DNA of 32,000 nt from the NCBI RefSeq assembly GCF_005047655.1, contig NZ_SUKF01000001.1, positions 119,394 through 151,393 of the forward strand. Direction: 5' to 3'. Below the pieces are notes generated by a model. It searched no databases, was not told the origin of the DNA, and saw only the letters and a list, made by a program, of their open reading frames with translations. Positions 10,870 to 29,497 of the stretch are shown piece after piece (position 1 is the first letter of the stretch; each line of letters starts with the position of its first letter). The translations under genes were made by a program, and so were the position numbers. Source of the DNA: Sinimarinibacterium sp. CAU 1509. Its GTDB lineage: Bacteria > Pseudomonadota > Gammaproteobacteria > Nevskiales > Nevskiaceae.

Positions 10870-12333
10870 TTACTGCGTCTTCAGCATGATGTTCATCAGC
10901 TTCTTCTTGAAGTCGGTGTACGGCGGGAACAGCACACGCGCCATCATGAATCGCGTGCGGACGACTGCGCGTTCATGCGAGAACGCTCGGAAGCCGTAGA
11001 TGCCGTGCGCACTGCCGATGCCGGAATTGTTGACGCCGCCAAACGGCAGATTGCCGTGTGCATACTGCACCACGCAGTGATTGATGCAGGTGCCGCCGGC
11101 GCTGGTGCGCTTGAGCGTCTTCTCGATGTTGCTCTCGGTGCGGCTCCAGATGTACAGCGCCAACGGCTTGGGATCGGCGTTGATCGCCTCGATCGCGCGA
11201 TCAAGGTCGGTGTAGGCGATGATCGGCAACAGCGGCCCGAAGATCTCTTCGGTCTTGATCTTGGCGTCTTCCGGAATGTTGTCGATCAGGGTTGGCTGGA
11301 TGAAGCAGTCCTTCTCGGAGGCTTGGCCACCGAACAGCACCCGGGCGCCACGCTCGCGGGCATCCGTCAGCAACGTGTTGATGCGCGTGGTGTGGCGCTG
11401 ATTGACCACGCGCGCCAGGTACGGCGAGTTCATCTGTTGCTCTGCGGTTTCGCCGTAGCATTCCTTGAGTACGTTGATGCACTCGGCAACGAACGCGTCC
11501 TTGACCGTCGCGTGCACATAGATGTAATCCGGTGCGATGCAGGTCTGACCATTGTTGGTGTACTTGCCCCACATGATCGTGCGTGCCGCGAGCTTGAGGT
11601 CGGCGCTGGCGTCGATGATCGTCGGCGACTTGCCGCCCAGTTCCAGCGTGACACTGGTCAGGTGCTTCGCCGCTGCTGCCATCACGATCTTGCCGACCGC
11701 CGGCGATCCGGTGAAGAAGACGTGATCAAACGGCAGCGCCAGCAGTGCGGTTGAGGTTGCAACGGCGCCCTCGACGATCGCCACTTCATCTTCGGGGAAG
11801 ATTTCGCGGATCACCTTGGCCATCAGTGTGGTCAGATGCGGCGTCATCTCGGACGGTTTGACGATGGCGGTGTTGCCGGCCGCAATGCATGACACCAGCG
11901 GTCCGAAGCTGAGGTTAACGTTGTAGTTCCATGGCGACATGATCAGGCAGCGGCCCTTGGGCTCAAACTGCACCCAGGACTTCAGGCCCACTGTCAGGCT
12001 GGTCGGCCACACCGTATGCGGCTTCATCCATTTCTTCAGCGCGCGCATCGCGTGCTTGGCTTCGCTGATGACCGGCAGGATCTCGGCGAGATCGACTTCA
12101 GCCGGCGGCTTCTTGAAATCCAGATATGCGGCTTCGTGAAAGGCCTCGCGATGGGCCATCACGGCGTCGTGCAACTTGCGGATCTTGGCGATGCGTTCCT
12201 GAGCGGTCGAGGTGCGCAGGCGGATCGCGGTTTCGCGTTGACGTTCAAAAATTCGCTGAATTTCGGCTTCCGGGGTTTCGCCCGGGGCAGTGCCACTGGC
12301 GGCGCTGGGCAGGTAGGACACGACCGTGCTCAT
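10870..12333 (-). CDS. Aldehyde dehydrogenase, class-3-like (second paralogue)
   Basis: Motifs are LELGGKSP, NNGQTCIAPDY, EIFGPLLP and PFGGVNNSGIGS. It has the same overall architecture as the 9291-10805 product. Confidence 0.9.
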   Translation of the reverse strand: MSTVVSYLPSAASGTAPGETPEAEIQRIFERQRETAIRLRTSTAQERIAKIRKLHDAVMAHREAFHEAAYLDFKKPPAEVDLAEILPVISEAKHAMRALKKWMKPHTVWPTSLTVGLKSWVQFEPKGRCLIMSPWNYNVNLSFGPLVSCIAAGNTAIVKPSEMTPHLTTLMAKVIREIFPEDEVAIVEGAVATSTALLALPFDHVFFTGSPAVGKIVMAAAAKHLTSVTLELGGKSPTIIDASADLKLAARTIMWGKYTNNGQTCIAPDYIYVHATVKDAFVAECINVLKECYGETAEQQMNSPYLARVVNQRHTTRINTLLTDARERGARVLFGGQASEKDCFIQPTLIDNIPEDAKIKTEEIFGPLLPIIAYTDLDRAIEAINADPKPLALYIWSRTESNIEKTLKRTSAGGTCINHCVVQYAHGNLPFGGVNNSGIGSAHGIYGFRAFSHERAVVRTRFMMARVLFPPYTDFKKKLMNIMLKTQ

Positions 12334-12526: not shown

Positions 12527-13981
12527 ATGAAGCGCATGAGCCCGTTGGACGCCGCATGGCTGTACGTCGATACCGTCGACACCCCCATGCATGTGGGCAG
12601 CCTGACGATCTTCTCGTTGCCGCCCAAGGCTCCGGAGCACTTTCTGCGCGACATGGTGGCGCAGCTGCGCGAGGTGCAGACTTGCGCCGCCCCGTTCAAT
12701 CTGAAGCTGCGTTCGGCACGGTTGAAGGGTGTGGTGCCAAGCTGGGTCGAGGATGACGAGATCGACCTCGATTACCACTTCAGGCATTCGGCGCTGCCGC
12801 AGCCGGGCGGTGAGCGCGAGCTCGGTGTGCTGGTGTCGCGCCTGCACTCGCACCCGATGGACTTCAATCGCCCGCTGTGGGAAATGCATGTCATCGAAGG
12901 CCTCGAGCATGGTCGCTTCGCGCTGTACATGAAGATGCACCACTCACTGGTGGATGGCGTCGGCGGCATGCGCATCCTGCAACGCATCCTGTCGGATGAC
13001 CCGAACGACCCCCATCTGCTGCCGCCATGGGCCGTCGGGTCTGGCGGCCGGCCGCGGGGGGCAGGCGGCAGTCCGAGCCTGGGGCAGTTGCAGCGCCTGA
13101 TCAGCACGGTGCGCCAGCAGGCCGCGACGGTTCCGGGGGTTTCGCGCGCATTTGTCGAAGTGCTGCGTGAGGCCGTGAGGCAGAACCTGCAGTCGTGGGC
13201 GTTGCCGTTTGCCGGACCCAAGTCGGTGCTCAATGACAAGGTTTCAGGGCAGCGCCGCTTCGCGACGCAGCATTACGCACTGGATCGCATCCGCGCAGTG
13301 GCCAAGGGCGCCGGTGTCACGGTCAATGACGTATTTCTGGGGCTCTGTTCAGCCGCGATGCGTCACTATTTGCTGGATCTCGATGCGTTGCCGGAAAAAT
13401 CGCTCACTGCCGGCGTGCCGGTGTCGGTCCGGCCCGCGGATGACGGCGAGTCGGCCAATGCGATCAGCTTCATCATCGCGCGCCTGAATACGGACATCGC
13501 CGACCCGATCGAGCGTCTGCATGCGATTCACGAGTCAGCGCTGATCGCCAAGGAGCATCTGCAGAAGCTGCCGAAGGCCGACATCAGCAACTACACCATG
13601 ATCTTCATGGCCCCGTTCATCCTGCAGCTGATTGCGGGTCTCGGCGGTCGCGCACGACCGATGTTCAATGTCACGATCTCCAATGTGCCGGGGCCGGATC
13701 GTCCCCTGTATTACAACGGCGCGCGTCTGGAGCAGATGTATCCGGTGTCGCTGCTGTCGCATGGGCAGGCGCTGAACATTACCGTCGTCAGCTACAACGG
13801 ACAGTTCAACGTCGGATTCACCGGTTGTCGCGACACCTTGCCGAGCATGCAGCGTTTAGCGGTCTACATGGGCGATGCACTGGACGAGCTGGAGGCCGTG
13901 CTGGGGCTGAATTCAGCGCCTGAGCAGCAGCGCACCAAGGCCCCGGCAAAAAAGCGCTCCAAGCGCAGCGCTACGGTCTGA
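12527..13981 (+). CDS. Wax ester synthase / acyl-CoA:diacylglycerol acyltransferase (WS/DGAT family)
   Basis: The N-terminus is MSPLDAAWLYVDTVDTPMHVGSL. The catalytic motif is HHSLVDGVGG (HHxxxDG). Also present are NDVFLGLCSAAMRHYL and ISNVPGP, all typical of the AtfA-type family. Confidence 0.9.
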   Translation: MKRMSPLDAAWLYVDTVDTPMHVGSLTIFSLPPKAPEHFLRDMVAQLREVQTCAAPFNLKLRSARLKGVVPSWVEDDEIDLDYHFRHSALPQPGGERELGVLVSRLHSHPMDFNRPLWEMHVIEGLEHGRFALYMKMHHSLVDGVGGMRILQRILSDDPNDPHLLPPWAVGSGGRPRGAGGSPSLGQLQRLISTVRQQAATVPGVSRAFVEVLREAVRQNLQSWALPFAGPKSVLNDKVSGQRRFATQHYALDRIRAVAKGAGVTVNDVFLGLCSAAMRHYLLDLDALPEKSLTAGVPVSVRPADDGESANAISFIIARLNTDIADPIERLHAIHESALIAKEHLQKLPKADISNYTMIFMAPFILQLIAGLGGRARPMFNVTISNVPGPDRPLYYNGARLEQMYPVSLLSHGQALNITVVSYNGQFNVGFTGCRDTLPSMQRLAVYMGDALDELEAVLGLNSAPEQQRTKAPAKKRSKRSATV

Positions 13982-14122
13982 GCGATGCGGGCGTGGTGGT
14001 TGTGGCATCTGGGCGGCGCGTGCGGACGCGCCAGCCAGATGCATACAATAGAGCTCGCGGCGGTCAGCGCGACCGCCCGAGTGCACCGACCCCTCGCCAG
14101 CCTTTGAGCTCGATCCAGCGTT

Positions 14123-14950
14123 ATGGCACCCCCCAAGAAATCAACCGCTCGCCCACGGGCCGCTGCACGGCCGGCGCCGTACAAGATCAAGGATGTATCT
14201 GAGATCACCGGTGTTTCGCGTGAGACGATTCGGTTCTATATCAATGAAGGCCTGTTGCCGCCGCCGGAGAAGTCGGCCCGTAACATGGGCTGGTACACGC
14301 AGCACCATATCGATCTGCTTCAGCTGATTCAGAAACTGCAGCGTGAACAGTTTCTGCCGCTCAAGGCGATCAAATCACTGGTTCACGGCTCCTCGGATTT
14401 TGAATTCACCACGCAGCAGGAAGGCGTGCTGGCGCAAATCCGGAATCAGCTGTCGTTTGGCAGTCGGGGTTTGCTGCCTTCGGGAAAGCCCGGTGCCATT
14501 GCGCGTGATCTGGGGCTGACGCGCAAGGAGCTCAAGGAGTTCGATGACATCGGGCTCACCTTGGCGAAGGACGCGACCGTCAGCGATATCGAGGTTGCTG
14601 AACTCTGGATCAAGCTCAAGAAAAACGGTCTCTCCGAGGCGCGCGGCTTCACGCCCAAGGATCTTGGTTATCTTGTCGAACTGGTCGACTTTGCGGTGCA
14701 GGCGGAACTGCGACTGTTTGAGCAAAAGATCCAGACGATGTCACCGGACGAAGGAACGCGCCTGTCGGAAGTCGTGATTCCGACGCTCAGTCGTGTCTTC
14801 GCGATACTGCATGAGCGGCGGCTGGGTATGTTCATCGAGCGTTACCTGGCCCAGCGCTCCGAGAGCAGGGTTCCAGCCAGGCGGGTCGCAAGTGCGGCAG
14901 CCCGCGGGAGCGCCGATGGCAGGGCATCGACGCGCCGTTCCAAGGTCTGA
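14123..14950 (+). CDS. MerR-family transcriptional regulator with a long C-terminal domain
   Basis: The HTH is YKIKDVSEITGVSRETIRFYINEGLLPPPEKSARNMGWYTQHHIDLLQLIQKLQ. Both N- and C-terminal tails are basic and Ala/Arg-rich. Confidence 0.8.
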   Translation: MAPPKKSTARPRAAARPAPYKIKDVSEITGVSRETIRFYINEGLLPPPEKSARNMGWYTQHHIDLLQLIQKLQREQFLPLKAIKSLVHGSSDFEFTTQQEGVLAQIRNQLSFGSRGLLPSGKPGAIARDLGLTRKELKEFDDIGLTLAKDATVSDIEVAELWIKLKKNGLSEARGFTPKDLGYLVELVDFAVQAELRLFEQKIQTMSPDEGTRLSEVVIPTLSRVFAILHERRLGMFIERYLAQRSESRVPARRVASAAARGSADGRASTRRSKV

Positions 14951-14995
14951 TACGGCGCGCACCCCGGAAGCACTCCCGTTCGCGCCACACATTTC

Positions 14996-15829
14996 ATGCG
15001 TGCGAATGCCATCAGATGGCTGTTGATGGTGGCTGCAGCCGTGAGCATGCCGGCATACATTGCCAGTCAACTTCACTGGGGGCAGGCGCTGCGTCCGGCG
15101 CCGTACCACTATGGCGAGTCCGATGCGGATTGTCCGGCGGTCAGGCCGGCATTGGCCGGAACTGCTCCGGCGGAACTTCTGCCCGGATACACCGTGCGGA
15201 CACCGAGCAACTACGATCCGCGCCAGGCGCATCCGCTCCTGGTTGTTTTTAGTCCGGCAGGCATCGGGCGCGGAATGAGAGAGCGTATCAGTGGGCTGAC
15301 GAATGTCGCTACGGCGCAAGGATTGATCGTCGCGTATGTCGATAGCCTGAAACTGAGCCGCAAGGCGGTGGGGCGCTTCGCGCAGGTGGTGTCAGCGATC
15401 GCGGCACAGTGGTGTGTGGATCCGAGCCGCATCACGGTAGCGGGCCATTCTGATGGCGGCACCGTTGCCGAACTGCTCGCTTTGCTCGATGCCGGGGCGG
15501 GAAGCGTTCCAGCGGCGATTGTGGCCAGCGGTGCGGGTCTGATCGAGTCGGACTTTGCCGAATTTCGCTGCGTCCAGCCGGTCGACGTCACCCTTTTTCA
15601 CGGCCGTGACGACCACCACTTTCCGGGGTACGGGGCCTCGGCGGCGCGGGGCTGGGCAGACTGTCTGGGGTGCGCAGCGACGCCGGCTCTCGATTCGGAC
15701 GGCTGCCTTGCCTATTCGGGCTGCCGAGGGCAGCTGCGCTATTGCGAGCTTCCAGTGGGCCATTGGCGATGGCCGCCAATCAACGATGCGATCGTGGCCA
15801 AAGCCGCTGCACGTGCGGCGATTGACTGA
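14996..15829 (+). CDS. Secreted alpha/beta-hydrolase-fold esterase (PHB-depolymerase/LpqC-like esterase family, tentative)
   Basis: The signal-like N-terminus is MRANAIRWLLMVAAAVSMPAYIA. PLLVVFSPAG is followed by the nucleophile elbow ITVAGHSDGG (GxSxG). The subfamily assignment is from memory only. Confidence 0.6.
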   Translation: MRANAIRWLLMVAAAVSMPAYIASQLHWGQALRPAPYHYGESDADCPAVRPALAGTAPAELLPGYTVRTPSNYDPRQAHPLLVVFSPAGIGRGMRERISGLTNVATAQGLIVAYVDSLKLSRKAVGRFAQVVSAIAAQWCVDPSRITVAGHSDGGTVAELLALLDAGAGSVPAAIVASGAGLIESDFAEFRCVQPVDVTLFHGRDDHHFPGYGASAARGWADCLGCAATPALDSDGCLAYSGCRGQLRYCELPVGHWRWPPINDAIVAKAAARAAID

Positions 15830-15920
15830 AGGCGGGGCGGTACTGGCCCGCAGCACTTGATCGGGTCAGGGCTTCGGGTCCGCATGCGTTGACGAGTGGC
15901 CGTGTCTGGCCTTGTGCGTA

Positions 15921-15934
15921 GTGAAACTATTCAC
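15921..15934. promoter_or_regulatory. Small palindrome GTGAA-ACTA-TTCAC in the leader or promoter region upstream of xmoC
   Basis: 5-bp perfect inverted arms with a 4-bp spacer, about 125 nt upstream of the preferred xmoC start. It could arise by chance. Confidence 0.2.
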
Positions 15935-16057
15935 TATGGACATGCTTAAAAACCTGTGCAAAACTTCGGGTACATGGCTCCGTTCAGAAGAGCCAGGATG
16001 CCGTGGGGCTGTGTGATGGCTGACTCGAACCTGCGATATTTGGAAGGAGATCTACAA

Positions 16058-16876
16058 GTGACCACTTCAGTCGAAGCATCGGACGACGCTCACGACAGAG
16101 CGCTGCGTGCACCCTGGAAAGCGTTTTTTGGCATGTTGGCGTTTGCTGCGGCTGTCTTCGCCGCCTACCGCATCTATCAGCATGAAACTGCGTTTACGTT
16201 CGGATTGGACTACTTCAATCCGGAGTTCGCGACGTATTGGATGAGTGTGCTGTACTCCGAGCTCGCAATCGAAGTGCTCCTCGGTATCGCAATCGTCGGT
16301 TACCTCTGGATCACGCGCGATCGCAATCTCGACAAGATCACGCCCTCGGAAGAACTGCGACGCTATCTGGTGCTGATGAGTCAGCTCCTGATGTTCGGAG
16401 CAATTGCCTATGTGGTGACTTCGATCTACACCGAGTCCGATGCGGCCTGGCATCAGGTTACGGTGCGCGATACCGACTTCACTCCGACCCACATTGGGCT
16501 GTTCTACTTTGGCGTTCCTGTTTTCATCCTCAGTGTGCTGACTGCATTCGTCTACGCACGCACGCGCATCCCGGCGTTTGCGAAGCGGGTGTCGCTGCCG
16601 TTCGCGCTGCTGGTTGCCGGTCCGGTGATGATCATGCCGAACCTGGGCTTCAACGAGTGGGGGCACACGTTCTTCTACGCTGAGGAACTGTTTGCAGCGC
16701 CGATTCATTGGGGCTTCGTGCTGCTGGGTTGGGCCACCTTTGCGGCGGGCGGTTTGCTGGTGCAGATCCTGACCCGCGTCGTGCAGCTGACCCAGGTTGT
16801 TAGCTCGGCTGACGTTCAGCAGACCAACATCAAAAGTGAAGCTGCAGCCAATGCGGAGCTGAACGCGGCGGCCTGA
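16058..16876 (+). CDS. xmoC: Copper membrane monooxygenase subunit C (PmoC/AmoC family)
   Basis: FGLDYFNPEFATYWMSVLYSE and LWITRDRNL are family-typical. TESDAAWHQVTVRDTDFTPTH gives the D-x3-H-x12-H pattern. NEWGHTFFYAEELFAAPIHWGF gives the N-x3-H-x13-H pattern. Start preferred at GTG 16058, behind the strong SD GGAAGGAGA. In-frame alternatives are ATG 16016 and the track start at 15956. Confidence 0.9.
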   Translation: MTTSVEASDDAHDRALRAPWKAFFGMLAFAAAVFAAYRIYQHETAFTFGLDYFNPEFATYWMSVLYSELAIEVLLGIAIVGYLWITRDRNLDKITPSEELRRYLVLMSQLLMFGAIAYVVTSIYTESDAAWHQVTVRDTDFTPTHIGLFYFGVPVFILSVLTAFVYARTRIPAFAKRVSLPFALLVAGPVMIMPNLGFNEWGHTFFYAEELFAAPIHWGFVLLGWATFAAGGLLVQILTRVVQLTQVVSSADVQQTNIKSEAAANAELNAAA

Positions 16877-16904
16877 TCCAGGCCACGATCGCAGCGTTTG
16901 ACTC

Positions 16905-16930
16905 GGGGAGCCGCCTGCGTGCGGCTCCCC
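16905..16930 (+). other. GC-rich stem-loop in the xmoC-xmoA spacer (possible attenuator or mRNA-stability element)
   Basis: GGGGAGCCGC-CTGCGT-GCGGCTCCCC forms a perfect 10-bp stem. It is followed by CGCTTTATTC, then the SD GGGAG and ATG 16951. Confidence 0.5.
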
Positions 16931-16950
16931 CGCTTTATTCGGGAGCATCA

Positions 16951-17703
16951 ATGTCTCAGGAACTAACCGTATCGGCGGTGCGCAGCACCGCCGAGCAGCA
17001 CCGCGTGCATGTTCAAGTCGACTTGCTGGCGATTCCGCTGGTCGTCCTATTGTTTGCGGCCGTATTCAGTTTCCAGTTTGCGCTGCTGGTCGGTGACTGG
17101 GATTACTGGATCGACTGGCGCGATCGTCGCTGGTGGCCGCTGGTTACGCCGTTGGCATTGACCATCCTGCCGGCAGTCTTCAGCTACTTCCTGTGGGAGC
17201 GTCTGCGTCTACCGTTGGCGGCGACACTGACGATCCTCGCGCTGACCGCTGCAGCGTGGGTCAGTCGGTACCTGAACTTTCATCTCTTTGCGAACTTTCC
17301 GATGAACATGGTGTGGCCATCGGCATACATCGGTTTGGGTCTGATCGTGGACTGCATTCTGCTGCTGACCGGCAGCTTCTTCTGGACCGGGTTATTGGGC
17401 GGCTTTGCCTTCGCGGTGCTGCTCTACCCGATGAACTGGCCGCTGCTCGCGCCGTTTCAGGTGCCGCTCGAATTGCATGGGACGATGCTGACGGTGTCCG
17501 ATCTGATGGGCTTCGAGTACGTCCGCACAGCGATTCCGGAATACGTCCGCATCATCGAGCAATCCACGCTGCGTACCTTCGGCGAGGCAGTGACACCGTT
17601 GACCGCCGTGTTTGCCGGCTTCCTCAACATCATGAACTTCTGGTTCTGGACCTGGATCGGCTATCTCGGCAGCAAGGCCCTGTGGATCCGAAAGATCGTC
17701 TGA
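16951..17703 (+). CDS. xmoA: Copper membrane monooxygenase subunit A (PmoA/AmoA family)
   Basis: Family blocks are LLVGDWDYWIDWRDRRWWPLVTP and GFEYVRTAIPEYVRIIEQSTLRTFG. The protein is multi-TM and 250 aa long. The SD GGGAG lies 5 nt upstream of the start. Confidence 0.9.
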   Translation: MSQELTVSAVRSTAEQHRVHVQVDLLAIPLVVLLFAAVFSFQFALLVGDWDYWIDWRDRRWWPLVTPLALTILPAVFSYFLWERLRLPLAATLTILALTAAAWVSRYLNFHLFANFPMNMVWPSAYIGLGLIVDCILLLTGSFFWTGLLGGFAFAVLLYPMNWPLLAPFQVPLELHGTMLTVSDLMGFEYVRTAIPEYVRIIEQSTLRTFGEAVTPLTAVFAGFLNIMNFWFWTWIGYLGSKALWIRKIV

Positions 17704-17714
17704 GGAGAACAACA

Positions 17715-18956
17715 ATGATGAACCGACTGATCTCTTGGGCCTGTGCAGCACTTATCGTCCTGTCGAGTTTTACCGTCGCAATCGAGTCCGCCGAGGCGCA
17801 TGGCGAACGCGCCCAGATGCCGCAGTTACGCATGCGCTCCGTGCATTGGTTCGACGTCAACGTGTCGACAGTCGATATGCAGATCAACGACATCGTCAAG
17901 GTCACCGGCAGCTTCATGCCGTCGAAGTATTGGCCGGAGCATGTCCAGTCAATTGAAAAGACTGCCTTCCTGAACATCGGGGTGCCTGGGCCGTCATTTG
18001 TGCGGCTGGACTCGCGCGTCAATGGAGTGCCGATGATTCGATCGACGGCCTTCATGAAAGGTGAGCGGTACAACTTTGAAGTGACGCTCAAGGCGCGCAA
18101 GGTCGGACGTTATCACGTGCATCCGGTGATCAACGTCGAGGGAACGGGACCGATCATCGGGCCCGGACTGTGGGTTGACGTGGGCGGAGACGAGGCGGCA
18201 TTTGAAAACAGCGCGACGACCTTGCTCGGCCAGACCATCGACCTGGAAACCTACGGACTCCGCAATGCGGCGTTCTGGTCCGCGCTGTGGTTCGTGATCG
18301 GTCTGGCATGGTTTGCGTACTGGTTGTCGAAGTGTCCGATCGTGGTGCCGCGCTTCAAGCGGGTTGATGAGCTGGGCGTCGTCAATGCGGACAAGATCAT
18401 CACAACGACGGATCGCCGCGTCGGGTTTGTGTTTCTGGTGCTGACGCTGTCGCTGGTCACCGGCTCCTACATGTATACGCAGGAGAAATGGCCGATCACC
18501 ACGCCGTTGCAAACCGGCAAAGTCGAAGTGCCGCCGCTTGAGGCTGAGAGCATGCCGCTGAAGGTGCGGTTGACGGATGCACGCTACCGTATTCCGGGTC
18601 GCAGCTTCCGCATGGAGCTGGAAGTGACGAACTCTGGCGACAGTCCGGTCACGGTGGGTGAGTTTGCTGCGGGTAATCTGCGTTTCATCAACAGCGCGGT
18701 CTTGCAGGTGACGCCCAAGGATGAGGACGACTTGATTGCGGCAGATGCACTTCGCGTCGAGGGAGGCTCGGTTGCGCCGGGCGAAACCCGCACAATTGTC
18801 GTCTACGCCGACGATGCGCTGTGGGAGACTCAACGCATGACGACGATGATTGCGTCCCCGGATGCGTTGGTGGCCGGGCTTCTGTTCTTCTTCGATGCCA
18901 ATGGCGAGCGCTATCCTGTCGAAGTGGGTGGAATGATGATTCCGGAGTTCGTTTGA
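17715..18956 (+). CDS. xmoB: Copper membrane monooxygenase subunit B (PmoB/AmoB family)
   Basis: Start at ATG 17715 behind the SD GAGGAG. The signal peptide MMNRLISWACAALIVLSSFTVAIESAEA is followed by HGERAQMPQLRMRSVHWFDV. GRYHVHPVINVEGTGPIIGPG is present. Two central TM helices sit between two beta-rich domains. The 607-aa track ORF starting at 17133 is an out-of-gene extension over xmoA. Confidence 0.9.
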   Translation: MMNRLISWACAALIVLSSFTVAIESAEAHGERAQMPQLRMRSVHWFDVNVSTVDMQINDIVKVTGSFMPSKYWPEHVQSIEKTAFLNIGVPGPSFVRLDSRVNGVPMIRSTAFMKGERYNFEVTLKARKVGRYHVHPVINVEGTGPIIGPGLWVDVGGDEAAFENSATTLLGQTIDLETYGLRNAAFWSALWFVIGLAWFAYWLSKCPIVVPRFKRVDELGVVNADKIITTTDRRVGFVFLVLTLSLVTGSYMYTQEKWPITTPLQTGKVEVPPLEAESMPLKVRLTDARYRIPGRSFRMELEVTNSGDSPVTVGEFAAGNLRFINSAVLQVTPKDEDDLIAADALRVEGGSVAPGETRTIVVYADDALWETQRMTTMIASPDALVAGLLFFFDANGERYPVEVGGMMIPEFV

Positions 18957-19561
18957 TGACACGTCTGATGGGCCTGATGCTGGTTCTGCTCATGGCCGTG
19001 CAGTCCGGACCGACGGCAGCGCACGGCGGGGTCTCGGTCGAGGACGATGTCTGCATCATGCGCATCGGGCCATACCGGGCACATTTCACGGGCTATCAGC
19101 CGGAGTATCGTGCGACGCAGGAATTCTGCGAGGACATTCCGGTGGTGGCCAAGGCGATCATCGTGCTGGATTTCATCGACAACGTCCTGCGCGGTATGAG
19201 CGTCGAGTTCAATCTGCTGCGTGATACGGATGGATTGGGAGCGGCGGCACGCTTCGACCAGCTCGGCTCGATGCAGCAGATTCGTGAACGCAGTTTGTTC
19301 AACGTACCCGCAGCGACCTATCCGCGTGGAACGATTACCCTGGAGCCGACGCTGGATCAGTCGGGCTGGTATATCGGAGTTCTCAGTGCTACGGACCCAG
19401 AGACCGGTGGCACCCTGCACTCGGTGTTTCCATTCCGAGTCGGCGTGCGCAGCTACTGGCGTTACGGTGTTGCGCTGTTGGTGATCCTGGCGCTGTCAGT
19501 GCTGTTGTACCGTGTCAGCGGTCGAAAACGTGCTGGCGGCGCCTCGACCACCGCTGCGTGA
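18956..19561 (+). CDS. Membrane-anchored periplasmic protein in the PmoD/AmoD position. It has a predicted N-terminal His after signal cleavage and is a possible copper protein.
   Basis: ATG 18956 shares its A with the xmoB TGA (TGATG). The signal peptide MTRLMGLMLVLLMAVQSGPTAA is followed by HGGVSVEDDVCIMRIG. The soluble domain is about 150 aa. The C-terminal TM is YWRYGVALLVILALSVLLYRV, followed by a basic tail. The architecture matches PmoD/AmoD and YcnI-type proteins. I could not verify sequence homology. Confidence 0.7.
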   Translation: MTRLMGLMLVLLMAVQSGPTAAHGGVSVEDDVCIMRIGPYRAHFTGYQPEYRATQEFCEDIPVVAKAIIVLDFIDNVLRGMSVEFNLLRDTDGLGAAARFDQLGSMQQIRERSLFNVPAATYPRGTITLEPTLDQSGWYIGVLSATDPETGGTLHSVFPFRVGVRSYWRYGVALLVILALSVLLYRVSGRKRAGGASTTAA

Positions 19562-19603
19562 ATGCGGCTTCCGATGCTCAATAGAAGGCAGGCATAACCG
19601 CTG

Positions 19604-21187
19604 ATGGGCCGAGCGGAGTCCATGCTGCCCGTAGTCTGGATCACCAGCGTCGCAGCGCTGATGATCGCAGGGGTTGCAGCGCTGGTTGTGTTCGGGCCAA
19701 GTGCGCCACGATCCGTCGGTGGCGACACCGTGCCTGAGGATGCATGTCCGCCCGGGACGCCGGCCCACTGGCGTGACGCACAGACGATCGACGGCGTCGA
19801 GATCGAGGCCGATCCGTCCTGTGAGCCGGATGATCCGGCGGTTGTCGCTGCTGTGGTCAAGGGCACAAACCGTGCGGTGCAGGCGTTGATGGAAACCCGT
19901 CTCGCACGCGACGCGGTGATCAAGCGTAACGACCGCGACGGTGACGGTGATCCGGACGACATCGAGATCAAGCTCGAGGTCACCGAGCTCAACGGATTTT
20001 CACCGAACCTGGATGTGCCGTCGCTGCGTTACCCGATCGCTCCCGGCATCACGCCGGGCCTATGGGTGTTCTCGCCGAAAGTGCGCGGCATGTCGACGAC
20101 GAACTTCCTGAGCAATGACCCGCAGCCGTTGCTGCGTCTGCCGGCTCCGGTGATCCGAGTGGAGCAGGGCGACACGGTCACGATCACCCTGGAAAACACG
20201 CACTACTTTCCGCACACGATTCACCTGCACGGTGTCGATCATCCGTTCGTTCAGGCCGATGGCCAGGGGAATGACGGCGTGCCGATGATTAGCGAAATGG
20301 CGACATTGCCGGGCCAGCGACACAGTTACCGCTTTACGCCGCGCCAGACAGGGACCTTTTTCTACCACTGCCATGTACAGCCACAGGCGCACATCCTGAT
20401 GGGGCTGGCCGGCATGATCGTGGTTGAGGAGAACCGTCCCGACAACTGGTTGCAGACCTTCAACGTCGGTGCCGGCCGTGTGCGACATCGTTCGGTCGCT
20501 TCGCGCGAGCAATACGACCGTGAGTACGATCTGCACTACCAGGACATGGATCGCGAGCTGCACAACCTGATCCAGCATACCAATGACATTCGCTGGACGG
20601 CCAAGGCGATGAATCGCGATTACAAAATCGCCGAGCGGAGCGCTGAGTATCATCTGCTGAACGGGCATTCGTTTCCCTATACCCTGCGTGACTCCATGGT
20701 CGTCGTCGCGCCGGACGAGAACGTGAAGCTTCGCGTGATCAATACCGGGGCCGAGCCGATCTATCTTCATCCTCACGGGCACAAGCCGACGGTGACGCAC
20801 TACGACGGCGTCAGACTTTCGCAGTCGATCACACGTGATGTCTTCGAGATCGGGCCCGCGCAGCGTGCCGAGTTTGACCTGTCGACCGTAAACGACGGGC
20901 TGCATAGCTACGGTGAGGGCGCGTGGTTCATGCACGATCATCGAGAGCCCGGCATCACCACCGACGGCATCAGCCCCGGGGGTGACATCAGCCTCGTTGT
21001 CTACGAGACCTATTTGAATGCTGATGGCATGCCGAAGACTTACGGTAGCCTGGCGACGTTCTTCAATCCCGCGTACTACCGCGGGGAGATTCCGGTCTGG
21101 GCGGAGATGGCGCCGGATCTGTTCGGAGACCCCAACGTCCCCCAGGCCATGTGTACTTCCAATCCCAAACGGGACACTCAAAAATGA
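19604..21187 (+). CDS. Multicopper oxidase, apparently two-domain type with the type-1 site in the first cupredoxin domain. It has an N-terminal membrane anchor.
   Basis: The TM anchor is MLPVVWITSVAALMIAGVAALVVFG. Copper motifs are HTIHLHG, FFYHCHVQPQAHILMGLAGM, IYLHPHGH and WFMHDH, giving four HxH pairs and one Cys. An Asp-rich segment, NDRDGDGDPDD, lies in the N-terminal extension. Start is 19604 or ATG 19622. Confidence 0.85.
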   Translation: MGRAESMLPVVWITSVAALMIAGVAALVVFGPSAPRSVGGDTVPEDACPPGTPAHWRDAQTIDGVEIEADPSCEPDDPAVVAAVVKGTNRAVQALMETRLARDAVIKRNDRDGDGDPDDIEIKLEVTELNGFSPNLDVPSLRYPIAPGITPGLWVFSPKVRGMSTTNFLSNDPQPLLRLPAPVIRVEQGDTVTITLENTHYFPHTIHLHGVDHPFVQADGQGNDGVPMISEMATLPGQRHSYRFTPRQTGTFFYHCHVQPQAHILMGLAGMIVVEENRPDNWLQTFNVGAGRVRHRSVASREQYDREYDLHYQDMDRELHNLIQHTNDIRWTAKAMNRDYKIAERSAEYHLLNGHSFPYTLRDSMVVVAPDENVKLRVINTGAEPIYLHPHGHKPTVTHYDGVRLSQSITRDVFEIGPAQRAEFDLSTVNDGLHSYGEGAWFMHDHREPGITTDGISPGGDISLVVYETYLNADGMPKTYGSLATFFNPAYYRGEIPVWAEMAPDLFGDPNVPQAMCTSNPKRDTQK

Positions 21188-21630
21188 AAATTGGCAAGTT
21201 TGGATGGGTATTGCCCATCGTGATGTTCGGCCAGCTGGCTGCTGCCGGCGATGTGTTTGCAGAAGATGCCGCCAATGCTCATGCGCATCACATGCACATG
21301 GATCGCGGTGGAGACGACAGTCGCGTCCCGACGCCGGCAGGCATGTCGATCATGGTGACACAGCCGGCCGATGGTGCGCAGCTCGATGCCGACGCAGCGA
21401 TTCTGGTGCAGGTCGAGACCACCGGCATGGATGCCTCTGGCGATCACTGGCACCTGTATGTTGATGGTGAGCTCGTTGCGATGGTCGGTGGAGGCCGTAC
21501 GAAATATCAAATCGAGCCCGCGACCCTGGCGCCTGGTCGTCACGAGCTAAAAGTCACGATCTCCAACGCCAGTCATCACGAATACGCCGTGGAGCAGCGG
21601 CTGACGGTTTCGATCGGCAACGCGCCTTAA
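21184..21630 (+). CDS. Secreted His/Met-rich small protein, DUF4399-like (tentative), a putative periplasmic metal (copper) binder
   Basis: The ATGA start/stop overlap with the MCO gene lies at 21184-21187. The signal peptide is MKIGKFGWVLPIVMFGQLAAAGDVFA. Next comes NAHAHHMHMD. The remaining pattern is QPADGAQL...SGDHWHLYVDGELV...LAPGRHELKVTISNASHHEY, which matches my memory of the DUF4399 pattern (P-DGA...HHHL-ID...L-pG-H-L). Confidence 0.7.
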   Translation: MKIGKFGWVLPIVMFGQLAAAGDVFAEDAANAHAHHMHMDRGGDDSRVPTPAGMSIMVTQPADGAQLDADAAILVQVETTGMDASGDHWHLYVDGELVAMVGGGRTKYQIEPATLAPGRHELKVTISNASHHEYAVEQRLTVSIGNAP

Positions 21631-21650
21631 TCTCGCCGCGGATTTCGCAC

Positions 21651-22247
21651 GTGCGTTCGCATTCGCTCCGCCGGGTTCACTTCAGGCTCGCTCTGCTGCT
21701 TGCTGTTGCGGTGCTGTCGTCGTCGCCGATGGTGTGGAGTGCCGATGCGGGTCAGCCCGCGCACGATGGGCCAGGGCATCGCATGATCTGGGACGCCAGC
21801 GGCATGGTCATGGGCGAGAACCAGGGCGATGAACTGCCGCGTGGCTGTGCACAAATCAGTGGTGATGTCGAGATTACCGTGCATGTTGGCCGCCGTTATG
21901 CGCCCGCGGGCTACGTGCTCGGTTACAGTCAGTACGAATGGCGGGTGCCCAAGTGCAGTCGGCTGCATGTCACTCTGATCAACGAAGACCAGGTGCGGCA
22001 TATGTGGATGCTGCACGGGCTGCCGAAATATCTGTACCACGAAGGCATGTTCCATCTCGAGGTCGAGGGTGAGCGGCGCATGACCGGCACCTTCATTGTG
22101 CCCAGCGATGACCGTACCTATTTCGTGCACTGTGACATTGCGCAGCACACGGAGAAAGGTTTGATCGCGCAGCTCAAGGTTGGTCGCGGTGACGGCGATC
22201 TGCCCGGTGTTCCGGGAATCTCCAAACCGCTGTTCCGCGAACGCTAG
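21651..22247 (+). CDS. Secreted cupredoxin-like (type-1 copper-like) protein with Leu at the usual axial Met position
   Basis: The GTG start is at 21651. The signal-like N-terminus is MRSHSLRRVHFRLALLLAVAVLSSSPMVWSA. LHVTLINEDQVRHMWMLHG supplies the upstream His. YFVHCDIAQHTEKGLIAQLKV gives C-x4-H-x4-L where cupredoxins normally have C-x(2-4)-H-x(2-4)-M. Confidence 0.7.
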   Translation: MRSHSLRRVHFRLALLLAVAVLSSSPMVWSADAGQPAHDGPGHRMIWDASGMVMGENQGDELPRGCAQISGDVEITVHVGRRYAPAGYVLGYSQYEWRVPKCSRLHVTLINEDQVRHMWMLHGLPKYLYHEGMFHLEVEGERRMTGTFIVPSDDRTYFVHCDIAQHTEKGLIAQLKVGRGDGDLPGVPGISKPLFRER

Positions 22248-22550
22248 CGCTGCTGCGGGTCAGGTCGCCACGCGTCGCCAGCGCGAGAATTTTCACCCTG
22301 GGGTTCGATATGCGATCGTATCGTCTCGCGACGAAGCAGCGCGCGATACGCATCTCTGCGGCAGCCCATGACGCTGCAGCAAGATTGCCGCCTTGAGCAG
22401 CGCTTGGGTCGTGGTGATTTTCCGCGGACAAGATCGGCGCGATCCATTGGGCCCACCGGAGCAGGCAGCCACCGCGGCGTGACAGTGGATGCTCAGCGTG
22501 CATCCCCATCAGTGGTCTGCGGGATGTGGTGACGATGCTGCCGTCGCAAC

Positions 22551-22582
22551 AAAAAAGGCGGAGCTATTGCTCCGCCTTTTTG
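22551..22582. terminator. Bidirectional intrinsic terminator (3' of the GMC oxidoreductase gene; also the first terminator downstream of the CuMMO operon)
   Basis: In AAAAAAGGCGGAGC-TATT-GCTCCGCCTTTTTG, an 8-bp GC core stem is flanked by an A-run and a T-run. It lies 20 nt beyond the stop of the minus-strand GMC gene. Confidence 0.75.
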
Positions 22583-22601
22583 CGTACACCGGAATCCCGC
22601 A

Positions 22602-24230
22602 TCAAGCAGCCTGCGACATGTCCATGGCTGCGGGCTGGTTCTGTTGCAGCATCATCCGGGCGGCCATCTCGCCGATCACCATTGCCGGCGCGTTGGTATT
22701 GCCGCCGATCAGGGTCGGCATGATCGAGGCGTCGGCAACGCGCAGGCCTTCGATGCCATGCACGCGCAACTGCGCGTCGACAACCGCCATCGCATCCGGT
22801 CCCATCTTGCAGGTGCCGACCGGGTGATAGATGGTCTCGGCACGCTTGCGGATGTCGGCGAGAATCGCTTCGTCGCTTTGCGCTGCCGAACCGGGTTCGG
22901 TTTCGCCGCCATTGGTGGTGGCGAATGCGGGCGATGCAAAGATGCGACGGGCCAGCCGAACCGACGCGATCAGTGCGGCGCGATCGTCCGGATGTTCCAG
23001 GTAGTTCGGCTGAATCAGCGGTGCGGCCATCGGATCGGCGCTCTTGAGGCCGATGTAGCCGCGACTCTTCGGACGCAACTGGCAAACATGCAGGGTGCAG
23101 CCGTAACCCGGGACCAGCTTGCGACCATGATCCTTGAGGAAGCTCGGCAGGAAATGGAACTGGATGTCAGGGCGCTCGGAGTCCTTTGACAGCTTGGCGA
23201 AGCCACCGCCTTCAGCGACATTGCTGGCAAGCATGCCGCGGCGTCCGAAGATATAGCGGAACAGTGCGGCGATTGCGCGGGGTACAAAGGAAAGTGCCAG
23301 ACCGAATGCGCGCTTGCTGCGATCGCGGATCATCACCGTCATGTCGAGATGATCCTGCAGGTTCTGTCCGACACCCGGAAGCTCGTGCACCACCTTGATG
23401 CCGTGCTGTTCGAGTTCTTTCCTGGGGCCGATTCCGGACAGCATCAGCAGTTGCGGCGAATTCACTGCGCCGCCGCACAACACCACTTCACGCTGTGCGC
23501 TCAGATGTCGCTTTTGCCCGTTTTGGACAACGACTTCAATTCCGACCGCACGCTTACCTTCCATCAGCACGCGCGTGGCATGTGCACCGGTCAGCACCGT
23601 CAGGTTCGGTCGGGATCTCGCGTTTTCAAGGAACGCCCGGGCGCTGCTCCAGCGGCGTCCATCCTTCTGCGTGACCTGATAAAGGCCGACGCCTTCCTGT
23701 TCCACGCCGTTGAAGTCGGGGTTGTACGGCAGCCCGGCCTGTTTGGCGGCTTCGATGAAGACCTGCGACAACGGGTTGGGGTCGCGCACATCGGCGACGT
23801 TCAGCGGGCCGCCGGTGCCATGTGAGCGCGACGGTCCGCGCTCGTTGTTCTCGTGCGCCTTGAACAGCGGAAGCAGATCATCGTGGCTCCAGCCGGGATT
23901 GCCCTGATTGGCCCAGTCGTCATAGTCGCGGGCATGTCCGCGGATGTAGACCATCGCATTGATCGAACTGCTGCCACCCAGGGTCTTGCCGCGAGGCCAG
24001 AACAGTTTGCGCTGATCAAGCTGTGCCTGTGGTTCGGTGTCGAAGCACCAGTTATAGGTCTTGCTGCCGATCAGGCCGATCACGCCCAGTGGGGTGTGGA
24101 TCAAGGCGCTGGAATCCGGCGGGCCGGCTTCGATCAGGCACACGCGATGTCGTGGGTTCGCGCTGAGGCGATCCGCCAGAACGCAACCGGCCGAGCCGGC
24201 ACCAACGATAACGTAGTCGAATTCATTCAC
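22602..24230 (-). CDS. GMC-family FAD oxidoreductase (choline/alcohol dehydrogenase; AlkJ-like)
   Basis: The N-terminus is MNEFDYVIVGAGSAGCVLADRLSANP. Also present are GKTLGGSSSINAMVY and the C-terminal block HPVGTCKMG...VHGIEGLRVADASIMP. The SD GGAGGA lies upstream of the start. Confidence 0.9.
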   Translation of the reverse strand: MNEFDYVIVGAGSAGCVLADRLSANPRHRVCLIEAGPPDSSALIHTPLGVIGLIGSKTYNWCFDTEPQAQLDQRKLFWPRGKTLGGSSSINAMVYIRGHARDYDDWANQGNPGWSHDDLLPLFKAHENNERGPSRSHGTGGPLNVADVRDPNPLSQVFIEAAKQAGLPYNPDFNGVEQEGVGLYQVTQKDGRRWSSARAFLENARSRPNLTVLTGAHATRVLMEGKRAVGIEVVVQNGQKRHLSAQREVVLCGGAVNSPQLLMLSGIGPRKELEQHGIKVVHELPGVGQNLQDHLDMTVMIRDRSKRAFGLALSFVPRAIAALFRYIFGRRGMLASNVAEGGGFAKLSKDSERPDIQFHFLPSFLKDHGRKLVPGYGCTLHVCQLRPKSRGYIGLKSADPMAAPLIQPNYLEHPDDRAALIASVRLARRIFASPAFATTNGGETEPGSAAQSDEAILADIRKRAETIYHPVGTCKMGPDAMAVVDAQLRVHGIEGLRVADASIMPTLIGGNTNAPAMVIGEMAARMMLQQNQPAAMDMSQAA

Positions 24231-25803: not shown

Positions 25804-26513
25804 TTAGGAGGCTCCTCTGGTATCGCAACGCCGGGGCGTGCGGCTGCTGCTGTGTTTTTTGTCTTGCTGGTCTTGCGCGGCGGTGAGTCGGCGCTGAGTT
25901 GAGGGTGCTGCAGGCCGGCCATCAGCGTGGCGATCATGGTTGGCACCAGGGCGTCGATCGTGCGACCCATGACGAATTGCCCCGCGACCTGCAGCGACAC
26001 CAGGCCATGCGCGCCGGCCCAGAACAGATGGCTCGCGGTCAGCGGATCGGTTGTCAGCTGCAGTGCGCCGCTGTTGTGCGCTGCGGTGACGACCTTGGTG
26101 CACACCCCCAACGAATCGCGCTTGGCCGCGGCCAGCTCCAGTGAGCGCTGGCCCAGATCGCTGCCCTCAAGTTCGAAGAACATCAGTGCATAGCGATTCG
26201 GACGCTCCAGGCCTGCGCGGATATAGGCGTCGGCCAGGACGTTGAGTTGCGTCAGCGGTTCGGTGTACGGGGCAATCGCTTCCAGCATGGCCTGTTCGAT
26301 CCAGCGATATGCCCTCGCCCTCAGTGCTGTAACCAATTCCTCCTTGCTGGAGAAATAGCGGTACGGAGCGGAATAGCTGCACCCCAGCAGTGACGAGATC
26401 TTGCGGAAGCTGACAGCGGACAGCCCGCTGTCTTCGAACAGCTGCATCGCAGCGTCCAGGATCTGTTCGCGTTTGGATTCGACCTGCTCGGCGGAAAAGG
26501 TTTGACGTGCCAT
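25800..26513 (-). CDS. TetR/AcrR-family transcriptional regulator
   Basis: The HTH is REQILDAAMQLFEDSGLSAVSFRKISSLLGCSYSAPYRYFSSKEELV. It is the first gene of a minus-strand unit, divergent from the RND transporter gene. Confidence 0.85.
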   Translation of the reverse strand: MARQTFSAEQVESKREQILDAAMQLFEDSGLSAVSFRKISSLLGCSYSAPYRYFSSKEELVTALRARAYRWIEQAMLEAIAPYTEPLTQLNVLADAYIRAGLERPNRYALMFFELEGSDLGQRSLELAAAKRDSLGVCTKVVTAAHNSGALQLTTDPLTASHLFWAGAHGLVSLQVAGQFVMGRTIDALVPTMIATLMAGLQHPQLSADSPPRKTSKTKNTAAAARPGVAIPEEPPK

Positions 26514-26514
26514 G

Positions 26515-26548
26515 GACGGTGTTGTACCAGCATTAAGTTAACACCGTC
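26515..26548. promoter_or_regulatory. Inverted repeat GACGGTGTT-N16-AACACCGTC abutting the TetR start codon; a candidate operator or 5' RNA hairpin
   Basis: Perfect 9-bp arms read from the sequence. The AT-rich 16-nt spacer contains GTTAAC. It sits in the divergent TetR/RND intergenic region. Confidence 0.4.
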
Positions 26549-26769
26549 AAATTAATTGAGGAGCGAGTCCTCCAAAGGCTGGAGGGGTGTCGAAACCTTC
26601 CCGTCCGGTAGGGCTCGGTCGGCGGCGAGGTGGGCAAACCTAACTTTTGTTAGGCGTCGCATTGCCTTGGCGCACTTAGCGTTGCATTCGGAGCTGACAC
26701 CACCGAATTCAGGTGGTCTGGCCATAGAGCAGTTGACCCAAACCGCATGGGTCGACGCATGAAATAGCG

Positions 26770-29388: not shown

Positions 29389-29497
29389 AGCAGAAGAAGA
29401 TTCGATACCAGCGGCGCCACCACAGGTGTGGTGGCCGCCGGACAGGGAAGATAGAAGCAAAAAGCTCGCTAGGGCTTTCCACGACAGGAGAAGAAAA

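Follow-up and report, generated by a model that had tools for sequence, protein, structure and literature searches.

A complete XmoCAB and XmoD copper monooxygenase locus, most likely hydrocarbon-hydroxylating, in the gammaproteobacterium Sinimarinibacterium sp. CAU 1509

What is known of copper membrane monooxygenases (CuMMOs) in organisms other than methanotrophs and nitrifiers comes almost wholly from genome sequences and isotope-probing work. A set of CuMMO genes, here called xmoCAB, lies in the genome of Sinimarinibacterium sp. CAU 1509 (contig NZ_SUKF01000001.1, positions 119,394 to 151,393) and raises the question of what such an enzyme oxidizes in a host of the order Nevskiales. The stretch of 32,000 nucleotides analyzed is called the window, and its own numbering is used throughout. 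We read the locus, with a probability of roughly 70%, as encoding a complete and functional XmoCAB enzyme together with the PmoD-like protein XmoD, belonging to a lineage of neither methane- nor ammonia-oxidizing type and most likely hydroxylating hydrocarbons; the substrate and pathway proposed below follow from sequence comparison and should be read accordingly.

Integrity of the xmoCABD genes

Four genes form the core of the locus:

16058 to 16876, plus strand: xmoC, 272 amino acids, GTG start at 16058; Pfam AmoC (PF04896), 5.6e-80
16951 to 17703, plus strand: xmoA, 250 amino acids; Pfam AMO (PF02461), 2.4e-78
17715 to 18956, plus strand: xmoB, 413 amino acids, with a signal peptide; Pfam Monooxygenase_B (PF04744), 1.4e-127
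18956 to 19561, plus strand: xmoD, PmoD/AmoD homologue, 201 amino acids; profile match to PmoD structure 6cpd, E 1e-18

The Pfam matches of XmoC, XmoA, and XmoB span nearly the entire length of their models, and by these matches the three co-encoded subunits, in gene order C-A-B, belong to the CuMMO superfamily. Shine-Dalgarno-like motifs, read directly from the sequence, precede xmoC (GGAAGGAG-8 nt-GTG), xmoA (GGGAG-6 nt-ATG), and xmoB (GAGGAG-6 nt-ATG). A first-pass annotation, made from the letters of the window, had described three PmoC-, PmoA-, and PmoB-like reading frames in this order, each with such a motif, and the Pfam matches and motifs bear it out. XmoA is 100% identical to an NCBI protein of Sinimarinibacterium sp. 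CAU 1509 that carries the label "methane monooxygenase/ammonia monooxygenase subunit A." Two long minus-strand open reading frames (ORFs), at 16067 to 16951 and 17994 to 18962, overlap these strongly supported genes and were rejected as artifacts of high-GC coding sequence (58 to 60% GC).

To judge ligand positions by alignment rather than by pattern, the subunits were compared with solved structures (Methylococcus capsulatus Bath, Methylocystis, and 20Z). XmoB was aligned with 3rgb_A, 11ll_Aa, 6cxh_A, and two ammonia monooxygenase (AMO) structures, and XmoC with the PmoC structures of Bath and Methylocystis. His29 of XmoB corresponds to the first residue of mature Bath PmoB (His33 of the precursor), while His134 and His136 correspond to Bath His137 and His139, completing the CuB site. 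In XmoC, Asp128, His132, and His145 align with D127, H131, and H144 of the 260-residue Bath PmoC chain, which are D156, H160, and H173 of CuC; likewise, Asn199, His203, and His217 align with N198, H202, and H216 of that chain, which are N227, H231, and H245 of CuD. By residue-by-residue alignment, the CuB, CuC, and CuD ligands that mark the superfamily are therefore all conserved. The mature N-terminal His and HxH pattern of CuB, as well as the CuC and CuD patterns of the PmoC-like protein, had been proposed from the translations, and each of the residues so listed occupies a homologous position. One residue differs at a further site: Met68 of XmoB replaces His72 of Bath PmoB, part of a second site.

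Related loci were collected by scanning one genome per species; 266 were found, and the best 80 (numbered L001 onward) were kept. Compared with the nearest relative, L001, the ratio of nonsynonymous to synonymous substitution rates (dN/dS) was 0.068 for xmoC, 0.039 for xmoA, and 0.04 to 0.07 over all three genes, which indicates that xmoCAB is under strong purifying selection. Across three relatives, the ratio ranged from 0.04 to 0.24. Synteny with L001 extends from a MerR-family gene upstream of xmoC through a multicopper oxidase gene downstream of xmoD.

A PmoD-like gene directly follows xmoB, with a start codon, ATG, that overlaps the stop codon of xmoB (TGATG). The same position is occupied by xmoD in 68 of the 80 related loci. 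XmoD matched no Pfam or NCBIfam family, and PmoD was reached only with a profile built from 19 homologues. The architecture is PmoD-like, with a signal peptide, a periplasmic domain, and a transmembrane helix at the C-terminus, and the mature N-terminus HGGVS is invariant. In PmoD, the CuA motif Cx7MxHxnC consists of Cys41, Met49, His51, and Cys65 of the Methylocystis Rockwell protein, while proteins of the Cx9HxnC class bind copper and form no CuA (PMC6189053). Cys33, His43, and Cys58 of XmoD align with this motif, but Arg41 stands at the position of Met49, so that the CuA motif is broken and the pattern reads C33-x9-H43...C58, with Cx9H retained across the aligned homologues. Judged by this motif, XmoD belongs to the Cx9HxnC class. 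The N-terminal His suggests, in addition, a copper site unlike that of characterized PmoD. XmoD is 34% identical to AmoD of Nitrosococcus oceani. Sixty-odd XmoD homologues, the N. oceani AmoD among them, share a mature N-terminus that begins with His (AHGG...) together with the Cx9H...C motif.

Base composition over xmoCAB (16001 to 19000) is 0.58 to 0.60 GC, compared to 0.60 to 0.69 in most of the window, and the 3' part of the window (26001 to 32000) is similarly low. The dip over xmoCAB fits either membrane-protein composition or lateral acquisition.

Placement of the enzyme and its probable substrate

XmoA proteins of other Nevskiales are 70 to 95% identical to that of the window; these relatives include Solimonas sp. 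SE-A11, Solimonas aquatica DSM 25927, and Panacagrimonas perspica DSM 26377, as well as metagenome-assembled genomes (MAGs) of Nevskia, Polycyclovorans, Oceanococcus, Stagnimonas, and Sinimarinibacterium. Burkholderiales follow at 68 to 74% (Polaromonas sp. AER18D-145 and AET17H-212, Rhodoferax, Hydrogenophaga, and Acidovorax), and a broad set of gammaproteobacterial MAGs (Macondimonas, Thiotrichaceae, Pseudomonadales, and Porticoccaceae) at 47 to 64%. Neighbor-joining trees of XmoA and XmoB were built with 100 bootstraps, using a numpy distance routine. References were the particulate methane monooxygenases (pMMOs) of Bath and 20Z, pxmABC of Methylomagnum, hmoCAB of Mycolicibacterium NBB4, and the operon of Rhodococcus sp. 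ZPP, plus, in the B tree only, two solved AMO chains from betaproteobacterial ammonia-oxidizing bacteria (beta-AOB).

In both trees the window falls within a clade of Nevskiales and Burkholderiales with 100% bootstrap support, whose members (Solimonas, Panacagrimonas, Nevskia, Polycyclovorans, Polaromonas, Rhodoferax, and Hydrogenophaga) are 64 to 95% identical, and it is thereby placed with the xmo operons of Polaromonas, Rhodoferax, and Solimonas. The presence of Burkholderiales sequences inside the same clade as those of Nevskiales implies lateral transfer between the two orders. In the A tree this clade is nested in a larger gammaproteobacterial Xmo clade (85% support). The window subunits lie outside PmoA/B, Pxm, beta-AOB AmoB, and actinobacterial Hmo; the phylogeny that had been suggested as a check on the first-pass annotation thus separates them from the canonical groups. 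Identities to Bath and 20Z pMMO are 41% (A) and 44 to 45% (B), those to Pxm are 39 to 42%, and those to the two solved AmoB chains are 38 to 39%. Actinobacterial Hmo proteins are the most distant sequences in both trees, at 38 to 40% (A) and 27% (B), and the window groups with neither hmoCAB nor bmoCAB. The likeness to hmoCAB drawn at first pass is accordingly very distant, and the nearest published lineage is instead the betaproteobacterial xmoCABD of Polaromonas and Rhodoferax. The first-pass reference to genome-mined copies in high-GC Gammaproteobacteria was better aimed, as XmoA of Solimonas aquatica is 72% identical.

Scores against NCBIfam models agree in part with a position outside both characterized groups. 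XmoC and XmoA fall below the cut-offs of AmoC_BACT (290.9 versus 319) and AmoA_BACT (265.9 versus 290), and the methane/ammonia monooxygenase models TIGR03078 (255.6 versus 280.6) and TIGR03080 (248.4 versus 318.15) were likewise not reached; the score for TIGR03079 was 394.5 against a cut-off of 394.9. By clade and equivalog scores combined, the locus is a member of neither the pMMO nor the bacterial AMO group, with AmoB_BACT the only bacterial AMO model passed. The Amo models of NCBIfam also capture Pxm, so their names are uninformative on substrate or function.

Relatives of this enzyme appear in the literature. The Solimonas aquatica operon has been listed as a CuMMO of unknown function (PMC6215863), and Polaromonas, Rhodoferax, and Solimonas aquatica were grouped as CuMMOs of unknown function with a citation of Rochman et al. 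2020 (PMC8630023); in these two lists the enzymes of the three taxa are given as neither methane- nor ammonia-specific. Transcript abundance of xmoA, assigned to a Nevskia MAG, was plotted with that of amoA and pmoA across groundwater wells in a study that also cites the Rochman et al. 2020 lineage of betaproteobacterial xmoCABD (PMC9562985). Overall, we place the window locus in the non-methanotroph, non-nitrifier "Xmo/Emo" lineage, within its Nevskiales/Burkholderiales branch. As this lineage has been described and XmoA is annotated in NCBI, the locus adds a member to it.

Gene copy number varies among the relatives. Two tandem xmoC copies stand upstream of xmoA in some related loci (L003, 7921 to 9706; L007; L049), and in several MAGs xmoCAB occurs as two or three paralogues, of which some lack xmoD (e.g., NORP120, with L048, L052, and L057).

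Three neighboring genes bear on the substrate:

22602 to 24230, minus strand: GMC-family FAD oxidoreductase, candidate alcohol dehydrogenase; Pfam GMC_oxred_N/C
10870 to 12333, minus strand: aldehyde dehydrogenase, candidate for the second oxidation step; Pfam Aldedh, 5e-95
12527 to 13981, plus strand: WS/DGAT wax-ester synthase, link to the operon uncertain; Pfam WS_DGAT_cat, 1.3e-83

In nine Burkholderiales-type loci (Polaromonas, Rhodoferax, Hydrogenophaga, and Acidovorax), a divergent gene pair for homologues of the GMC protein (64 to 66%) and the aldehyde dehydrogenase (61 to 63%) stands immediately upstream of xmoC, and the aldehyde dehydrogenase homologue alone (55 to 57%) takes that place in six Nevskiales loci. 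Aldehyde dehydrogenase homologues thus precede xmoC in 15 close-clade loci, at 55 to 63% overall. These conserved neighbors support a route from hydrocarbon to alcohol, aldehyde, and acid. Rochman et al. 2020 (ISME J 14:714) reportedly tied the betaproteobacterial xmoCABD to ethane and propane rather than to methane, using isotope probing, single-cell genomes, and reverse transcription-PCR. In the pathway we propose, the enzyme would insert one oxygen atom from O2 into a hydrocarbon, most plausibly an n-alkane, at the copper site or sites of XmoC. The GMC-type dehydrogenase would oxidize the resulting alcohol, the aldehyde dehydrogenase would act on the aldehyde, and the acid would enter fatty-acid metabolism.

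The Pfam scan of ORFs in the 32-kb window found no methanol, formaldehyde, or hydroxylamine oxidation family, as had been noted from the translations. It also confirmed the neighbors named there, recovering two aldehyde dehydrogenases, two DUF1329 proteins, a DUF1302 protein, and an MMPL/RND transporter in addition to the GMC and WS/DGAT genes. A hydrocarbon monooxygenase had been the first-pass reading, and it is supported here by the separate clade, the sub-cut-off scores of XmoC and XmoA, the homologous ligands, and the lack of one-carbon (C1) and nitrification genes in the window.

Several points weigh against this assignment. The GMC and aldehyde dehydrogenase genes of the window lie 3.6 kb and 3.7 kb from the operon on the opposite strand, which leaves co-regulation a supposition. 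The absence of C1 and nitrification genes applies to the 32-kb window rather than to the whole genome. The trees hold few references; gamma-AOB AMO, alphaproteobacterial pMMO, archaeal AMO, and the enzymes of Verrucomicrobia, NC10, Haliea, and ET-HIRO lie outside them. XmoB, alone among the subunits, passes the NCBIfam AmoB_BACT model (524 versus 336), and in the B tree the Xmo clade has beta-AOB AmoB as its nearest outgroup (84% support), which leaves room for ammonia co-oxidation. No experiment ties any Nevskiales Xmo to a substrate, and what is known of function in the sister betaproteobacterial enzymes comes from indirect evidence.

The alternative that survives best, possible although improbable, is that the enzyme acts on a hydrocarbon class other than short n-alkanes, namely, ethylene or other alkenes, methylated cycloalkanes, or medium- to long-chain alkanes feeding wax esters. 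A cupredoxin-like protein encoded downstream of xmoD has a 66% identical homologue in the ethylene-assimilating Haliea sp. ETY-M (PMC4036023), and Porticoccaceae enzymes (bioRxiv 10.1101/2022.11.07.515388) share the same large clade, with XmoA 51 to 52% identical. Homologues of the GMC (65%) and aldehyde dehydrogenase (61%) proteins flank a P450/ferredoxin reductase/ferredoxin set on plasmid 2 of Polaromonas JS666, and so this pair also accompanies a P450 system. DUF1329, DUF1302, and RND genes, for uptake or efflux, flank the locus. As for longer chains, L003, a Nevskiaceae MAG, carries a WS/DGAT homologue (46%; 12663 to 14054) on the strand of xmoD and 64 nt past it, and homologues occur about 6 kb from xmo in three other Nevskiales loci (L013, L014, and L064), in addition to the gene in the window. 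A smaller possibility is that the enzyme acts on medium- or long-chain alkanes, with the alcohols going into wax esters. Against such substrates, the window showed no epoxide-handling genes (coenzyme M or glutathione type) and no Baeyer-Villiger monooxygenase, an enzyme that ring or subterminal routes would require; WS/DGAT genes adjoin xmo in only a few loci. To our knowledge, activity on long chains has been demonstrated for no CuMMO. The WS/DGAT and esterase-like neighbors hint at longer-chain or subterminal routes, which they allow and do not establish. The position of the L003 gene is itself suggestive of esterification of Xmo-derived alcohols.

That the locus encodes an ammonia monooxygenase, serving heterotrophic nitrification or ammonia co-oxidation, appears very unlikely. 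It would account for the AmoB_BACT score of XmoB, for the sister position of beta-AOB AmoB in the B tree, and for the counterparts of xmoD and of the downstream oxidase and cupredoxin genes beside N. oceani amoCAB. The identity to AmoB is nevertheless only 38 to 39%, XmoC and XmoA fall short of AmoC_BACT and AmoA_BACT, the names of these models carry no functional indication since they capture Pxm as well, and the window contains neither hao nor cytochrome c554/cM552 genes. The conserved neighbors, moreover, indicate alcohol and aldehyde oxidation. Beta-AOB amoCAB has been described as diversified from "emoCAB (ethane monooxygenase)" and pxmABC of non-methanotrophs (PMC11135946), an account that fits the position of AmoB beside the Xmo clade.

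We give still less credence to a pMMO in an unrecognized facultative methanotroph. Every pMMO copper ligand is present, and pMMOs are the best-scoring solved structures for all three subunits. Yet XmoA and XmoB share only 41 to 45% identity with their Bath and 20Z counterparts and lie outside their clade, the TIGR03078 and TIGR03080 cut-offs are not reached, and no methanol or formaldehyde oxidation gene occurs in the 32 kb. The conserved neighbors are of GMC and aldehyde dehydrogenase type, with a pyrroloquinoline quinone (PQQ) alcohol dehydrogenase, of methanol or ethanol subtype, in Polaromonas and Rhodoferax, and no gene for oxidizing formaldehyde was seen. Organisms with the sister enzymes reportedly did not assimilate methane in the Rochman 2020 work. 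Finally, the view that the operon has no role in its host, being recently transferred, unused, or decaying, as the slightly lower GC over xmoCAB and the lateral transfer implied by the shared 100% clade might suggest, is barely credible given the intact ORFs and ligands, the dN/dS of 0.04 to 0.24 against three relatives, the start/stop overlaps, and the synteny with L001 from the MerR gene to the oxidase.

The genes downstream of xmoD and the wider neighborhood

Three further genes closely follow xmoD:

19604 to 21187, plus strand: membrane-anchored two-domain multicopper oxidase; Pfam Cu-oxidase_3/_2
21184 to 21630, plus strand: small secreted His/Met-rich protein; ORF with sub-threshold Pfam matches only (DUF4399 and Big_7)
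21651 to 22247, plus strand: cupredoxin-like protein, 198 amino acids; weak Pfam Cu-oxidase_2 match

The seven plus-strand genes from xmoC to the cupredoxin-like gene are separated by gaps of at most 74 nt, and the operon reaches at least to 19561 and probably to 22247. The first-pass annotation was correct as to xmoCAB, but by ending the operon at 18956 it left out xmoD and the three copper-protein genes. The ATG of the His/Met-rich gene overlaps the oxidase stop codon (ATGA), and this and the xmoB-xmoD overlap suggest translational coupling.

The closest solved relative of the oxidase is 3g5w, the two-domain oxidase of Nitrosomonas europaea. It has a type-1 Cys in its first cupredoxin domain and a conserved N-terminal extension (D-DGDGDPD), and its HxH, HCH, and H..M copper ligands are invariant in 30 homologues. 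The His/Met-rich protein gave no tblastn match in the 80 related loci, and its sequence is not conserved there. In the cupredoxin-like protein, H117, H122, H135, H160-C161-D162, and H166 are invariant and an N-terminal H..M..M..M motif is present; sequence search yielded no significant solved relative. The cupredoxin family has 1,177 members at E ≤ 1e-5, with homologues in Haliea sp. ETY-M (66%) and four Nitrosococcus species (61 to 63%).

Among 33 informative loci of more divergent lineages, the oxidase follows xmoD in 29, while among 33 informative close Nevskiales/Burkholderiales loci it does so directly in only two, L001 and L019. The cupredoxin-like gene follows the oxidase in 22 of 22 loci with room for it. 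In N. oceani ATCC 19707, an oxidase orthologue (55%, full length) and a cupredoxin-like protein (61%) are encoded 1.6 kb upstream of amoCAB-amoD. The oxidase-cupredoxin pair was located at 19604 to 22247 in the window, at 8308 to 11020 in L085, and in L087 and L090. A strict linkage of the pair to CuMMO genes was ruled out, as two of four sampled homologue loci (L088 and L089) contain no CuMMO within 10 kb. Among the papers available to the literature search, none paired "xmoCAB" with "multicopper oxidase."

In most close Nevskiales relatives, copC and a copD-cytochrome c fusion gene stand after xmoD, at the position of the oxidase and cupredoxin genes in the window. This replacement fits a copper-related role for the genes downstream of xmoD. 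A copCD arrangement is reportedly known from pmo and amo operons (Lawton et al. 2016). Genes for PmoD adjacent to copCD have been mentioned (PMC6189053). In Polaromonas and Rhodoferax, the gene after xmoD encodes the PQQ alcohol dehydrogenase, of methanol or ethanol subtype. The order of copC followed by a fusion of CopD, cytochrome c, and a C-terminal domain was seen in L002 (12604 to 14958), L016 (13027 to 14946), and L024 (12973 to 14967); the C-terminal domain has only a weak, sub-threshold AhpC/TSA match, in L024.

We infer that XmoD, the oxidase, the His/Met-rich protein, and the cupredoxin-like protein would form a periplasmic copper module, concerned with copper supply and handling or with electron transfer for the enzyme. 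A more specific proposal, that the oxidase and cupredoxin are dedicated periplasmic partners of gammaproteobacterial CuMMOs, delivering electrons or loading copper, rather than generic copper resistance proteins, is doubtful. It draws on the pair standing after xmoD in divergent loci and beside amoCAB in N. oceani, and on the cupredoxin homologue in ethylene-oxidizing Haliea. If it held, the cultured strain would offer a handle on what feeds electrons or copper to enzymes of the pMMO/AMO type.

Two genes and one noncoding element lie upstream of, or within, the operon:

14123 to 14950, plus strand: MerR-family regulator with a long C-terminal domain, no Cys; Pfam MerR_1, 5e-22
14996 to 15829, plus strand: secreted alpha/beta-hydrolase (esterase/polyhydroxyalkanoate depolymerase-like); weak Pfam and NCBIfam matches
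16905 to 16930, plus strand: GC-rich hairpin in the xmoC-xmoA spacer, 10 bp with 9 G-C pairs and a short T-rich tail; found by a scan for terminator-like structures

Homologues of the MerR-family protein (43 to 89%) are encoded next to xmoC in eight related loci (L001, L002, L003, L005, L007, L009, L012, and L024), and in L008 the homologue lies about 6 kb downstream of xmoD. This gene is the likeliest candidate for a regulator of the operon. The Cys-rich alpha/beta-hydrolase occurs within 10 kb of xmo in 15 of the 80 loci, from Nevskiales, Macondimonas, Thiotrichaceae, and Pseudomonadales.

The xmoC-xmoA spacer region (16870 to 16955) folds with -39.3 kcal/mol (z of -2.6). Strong hairpins of unrelated sequence, often with a T-rich tail, occupy this spacer in most related loci (L001 to L070). 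Their recurrence with unrelated sequence suggests a conserved part in ending, processing, or stabilizing the transcript, and the hairpin of the window is a candidate attenuator or mRNA-stabilizing stem. A sigma-70 promoter scan of 13900 to 22700 returned 0 sites, compared to 2.8 expected, and no convincing -24/-12 promoter was found by eye upstream of xmoC. An Rfam search of the window found no known RNA. About 11 kb upstream of the operon, a gene at 2681 to 5050 joins a large Ser/Thr protein kinase to HDOD and GAF domains, an unusual signaling architecture with no evident link to xmo.

The finding leaves current understanding of CuMMOs unchanged; its main value lies in a cultured test system, with the oxidase-cupredoxin module as a side lead. 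The closest published relatives reportedly come from single-cell genomes rather than cultures. CAU 1509 is a cultured isolate whose copy has every ligand intact and keeps the full seven-gene arrangement, which most close relatives have lost. It is thus a practical system for assigning a substrate to the lineage and for finding out whether CuMMOs are served directly by PmoD-like proteins, the two-domain oxidase, and the cupredoxin. The locus is also useful for avoiding misannotation as methane or ammonia monooxygenase in environmental surveys.

Comparison with known systems

The hmoCAB operons of Mycolicibacterium chubuense NBB4 and Rhodococcus sp. ZPP resemble the window as C-A-B CuMMOs of non-methanotrophs with hydrocarbon substrates. 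Actinobacterial Hmo/Bmo operons have neighbors of their own, an AMP-binding protein and an N,N-dimethyl-4-nitrosoaniline (NDMA)-dependent methanol dehydrogenase, and the actinobacterial Hmo genomes contain no PmoD homologue (PMC6189053).

The pMMO of M. capsulatus Bath (PDB 3rgb, 7s4h, and 7ev9) has three homologous subunits with aligned CuB, CuC, and CuD ligands, and its mature PmoB likewise begins at the His of HGE. It differs in belonging to another clade at 41 to 45% identity and in having His72 of PmoB where the window has Met, and no C1 pathway genes accompany the operon in the 32 kb of the window.

In N. oceani ATCC 19707, amoCAB is followed by amoD, whose product shares with XmoD 34% identity as well as the AHGG mature N-terminus. 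Its catalytic subunits are gamma-AOB AMO, outside the tree sample, its oxidase-cupredoxin pair lies upstream of amoC rather than downstream, and its cupredoxin-like protein is longer (339 amino acids).

Gammaproteobacterial CuMMOs of non-methanotrophs are further represented by Haliea sp. ETY-M and ETY-NAG (ethylene) and Porticoccaceae B045 (methylcycloalkanes). The likeness to Haliea sp. ETY-M runs through the 66% identical cupredoxin-like homologue, its catalytic subunits being outside the comparison; no record named Haliea appears among the best 80 of the 266 relatives. Porticoccaceae XmoA (51 to 52% identical) belongs to the same large clade, and Porticoccaceae loci L072 and L076 differ from the window in having no oxidase after xmoD.

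Closer still are the xmoCABD operons of Polaromonas, Rhodoferax, and Hydrogenophaga, alkane-utilizing Betaproteobacteria that share the 100% clade (XmoA, 68 to 70%; XmoB, 64 to 66%), the C-A-B-D order, and homologous GMC and aldehyde dehydrogenase genes nearby. Theirs stand divergently, directly upstream of xmoC, with the PQQ alcohol dehydrogenase after xmoD, whereas in the window, from a gammaproteobacterial (Nevskiales) host, the dehydrogenases lie 3.6 to 3.7 kb away and the oxidase, His/Met-rich, and cupredoxin-like genes follow xmoD. Solimonas aquatica DSM 25927 and other Nevskiales share order and clade (XmoA, 70 to 95%), xmoD, and, in many cases, a MerR-like gene beside xmoC; after xmoD, most of these close relatives carry copC and the copD-cytochrome c fusion, unlike the window with its oxidase and cupredoxin.

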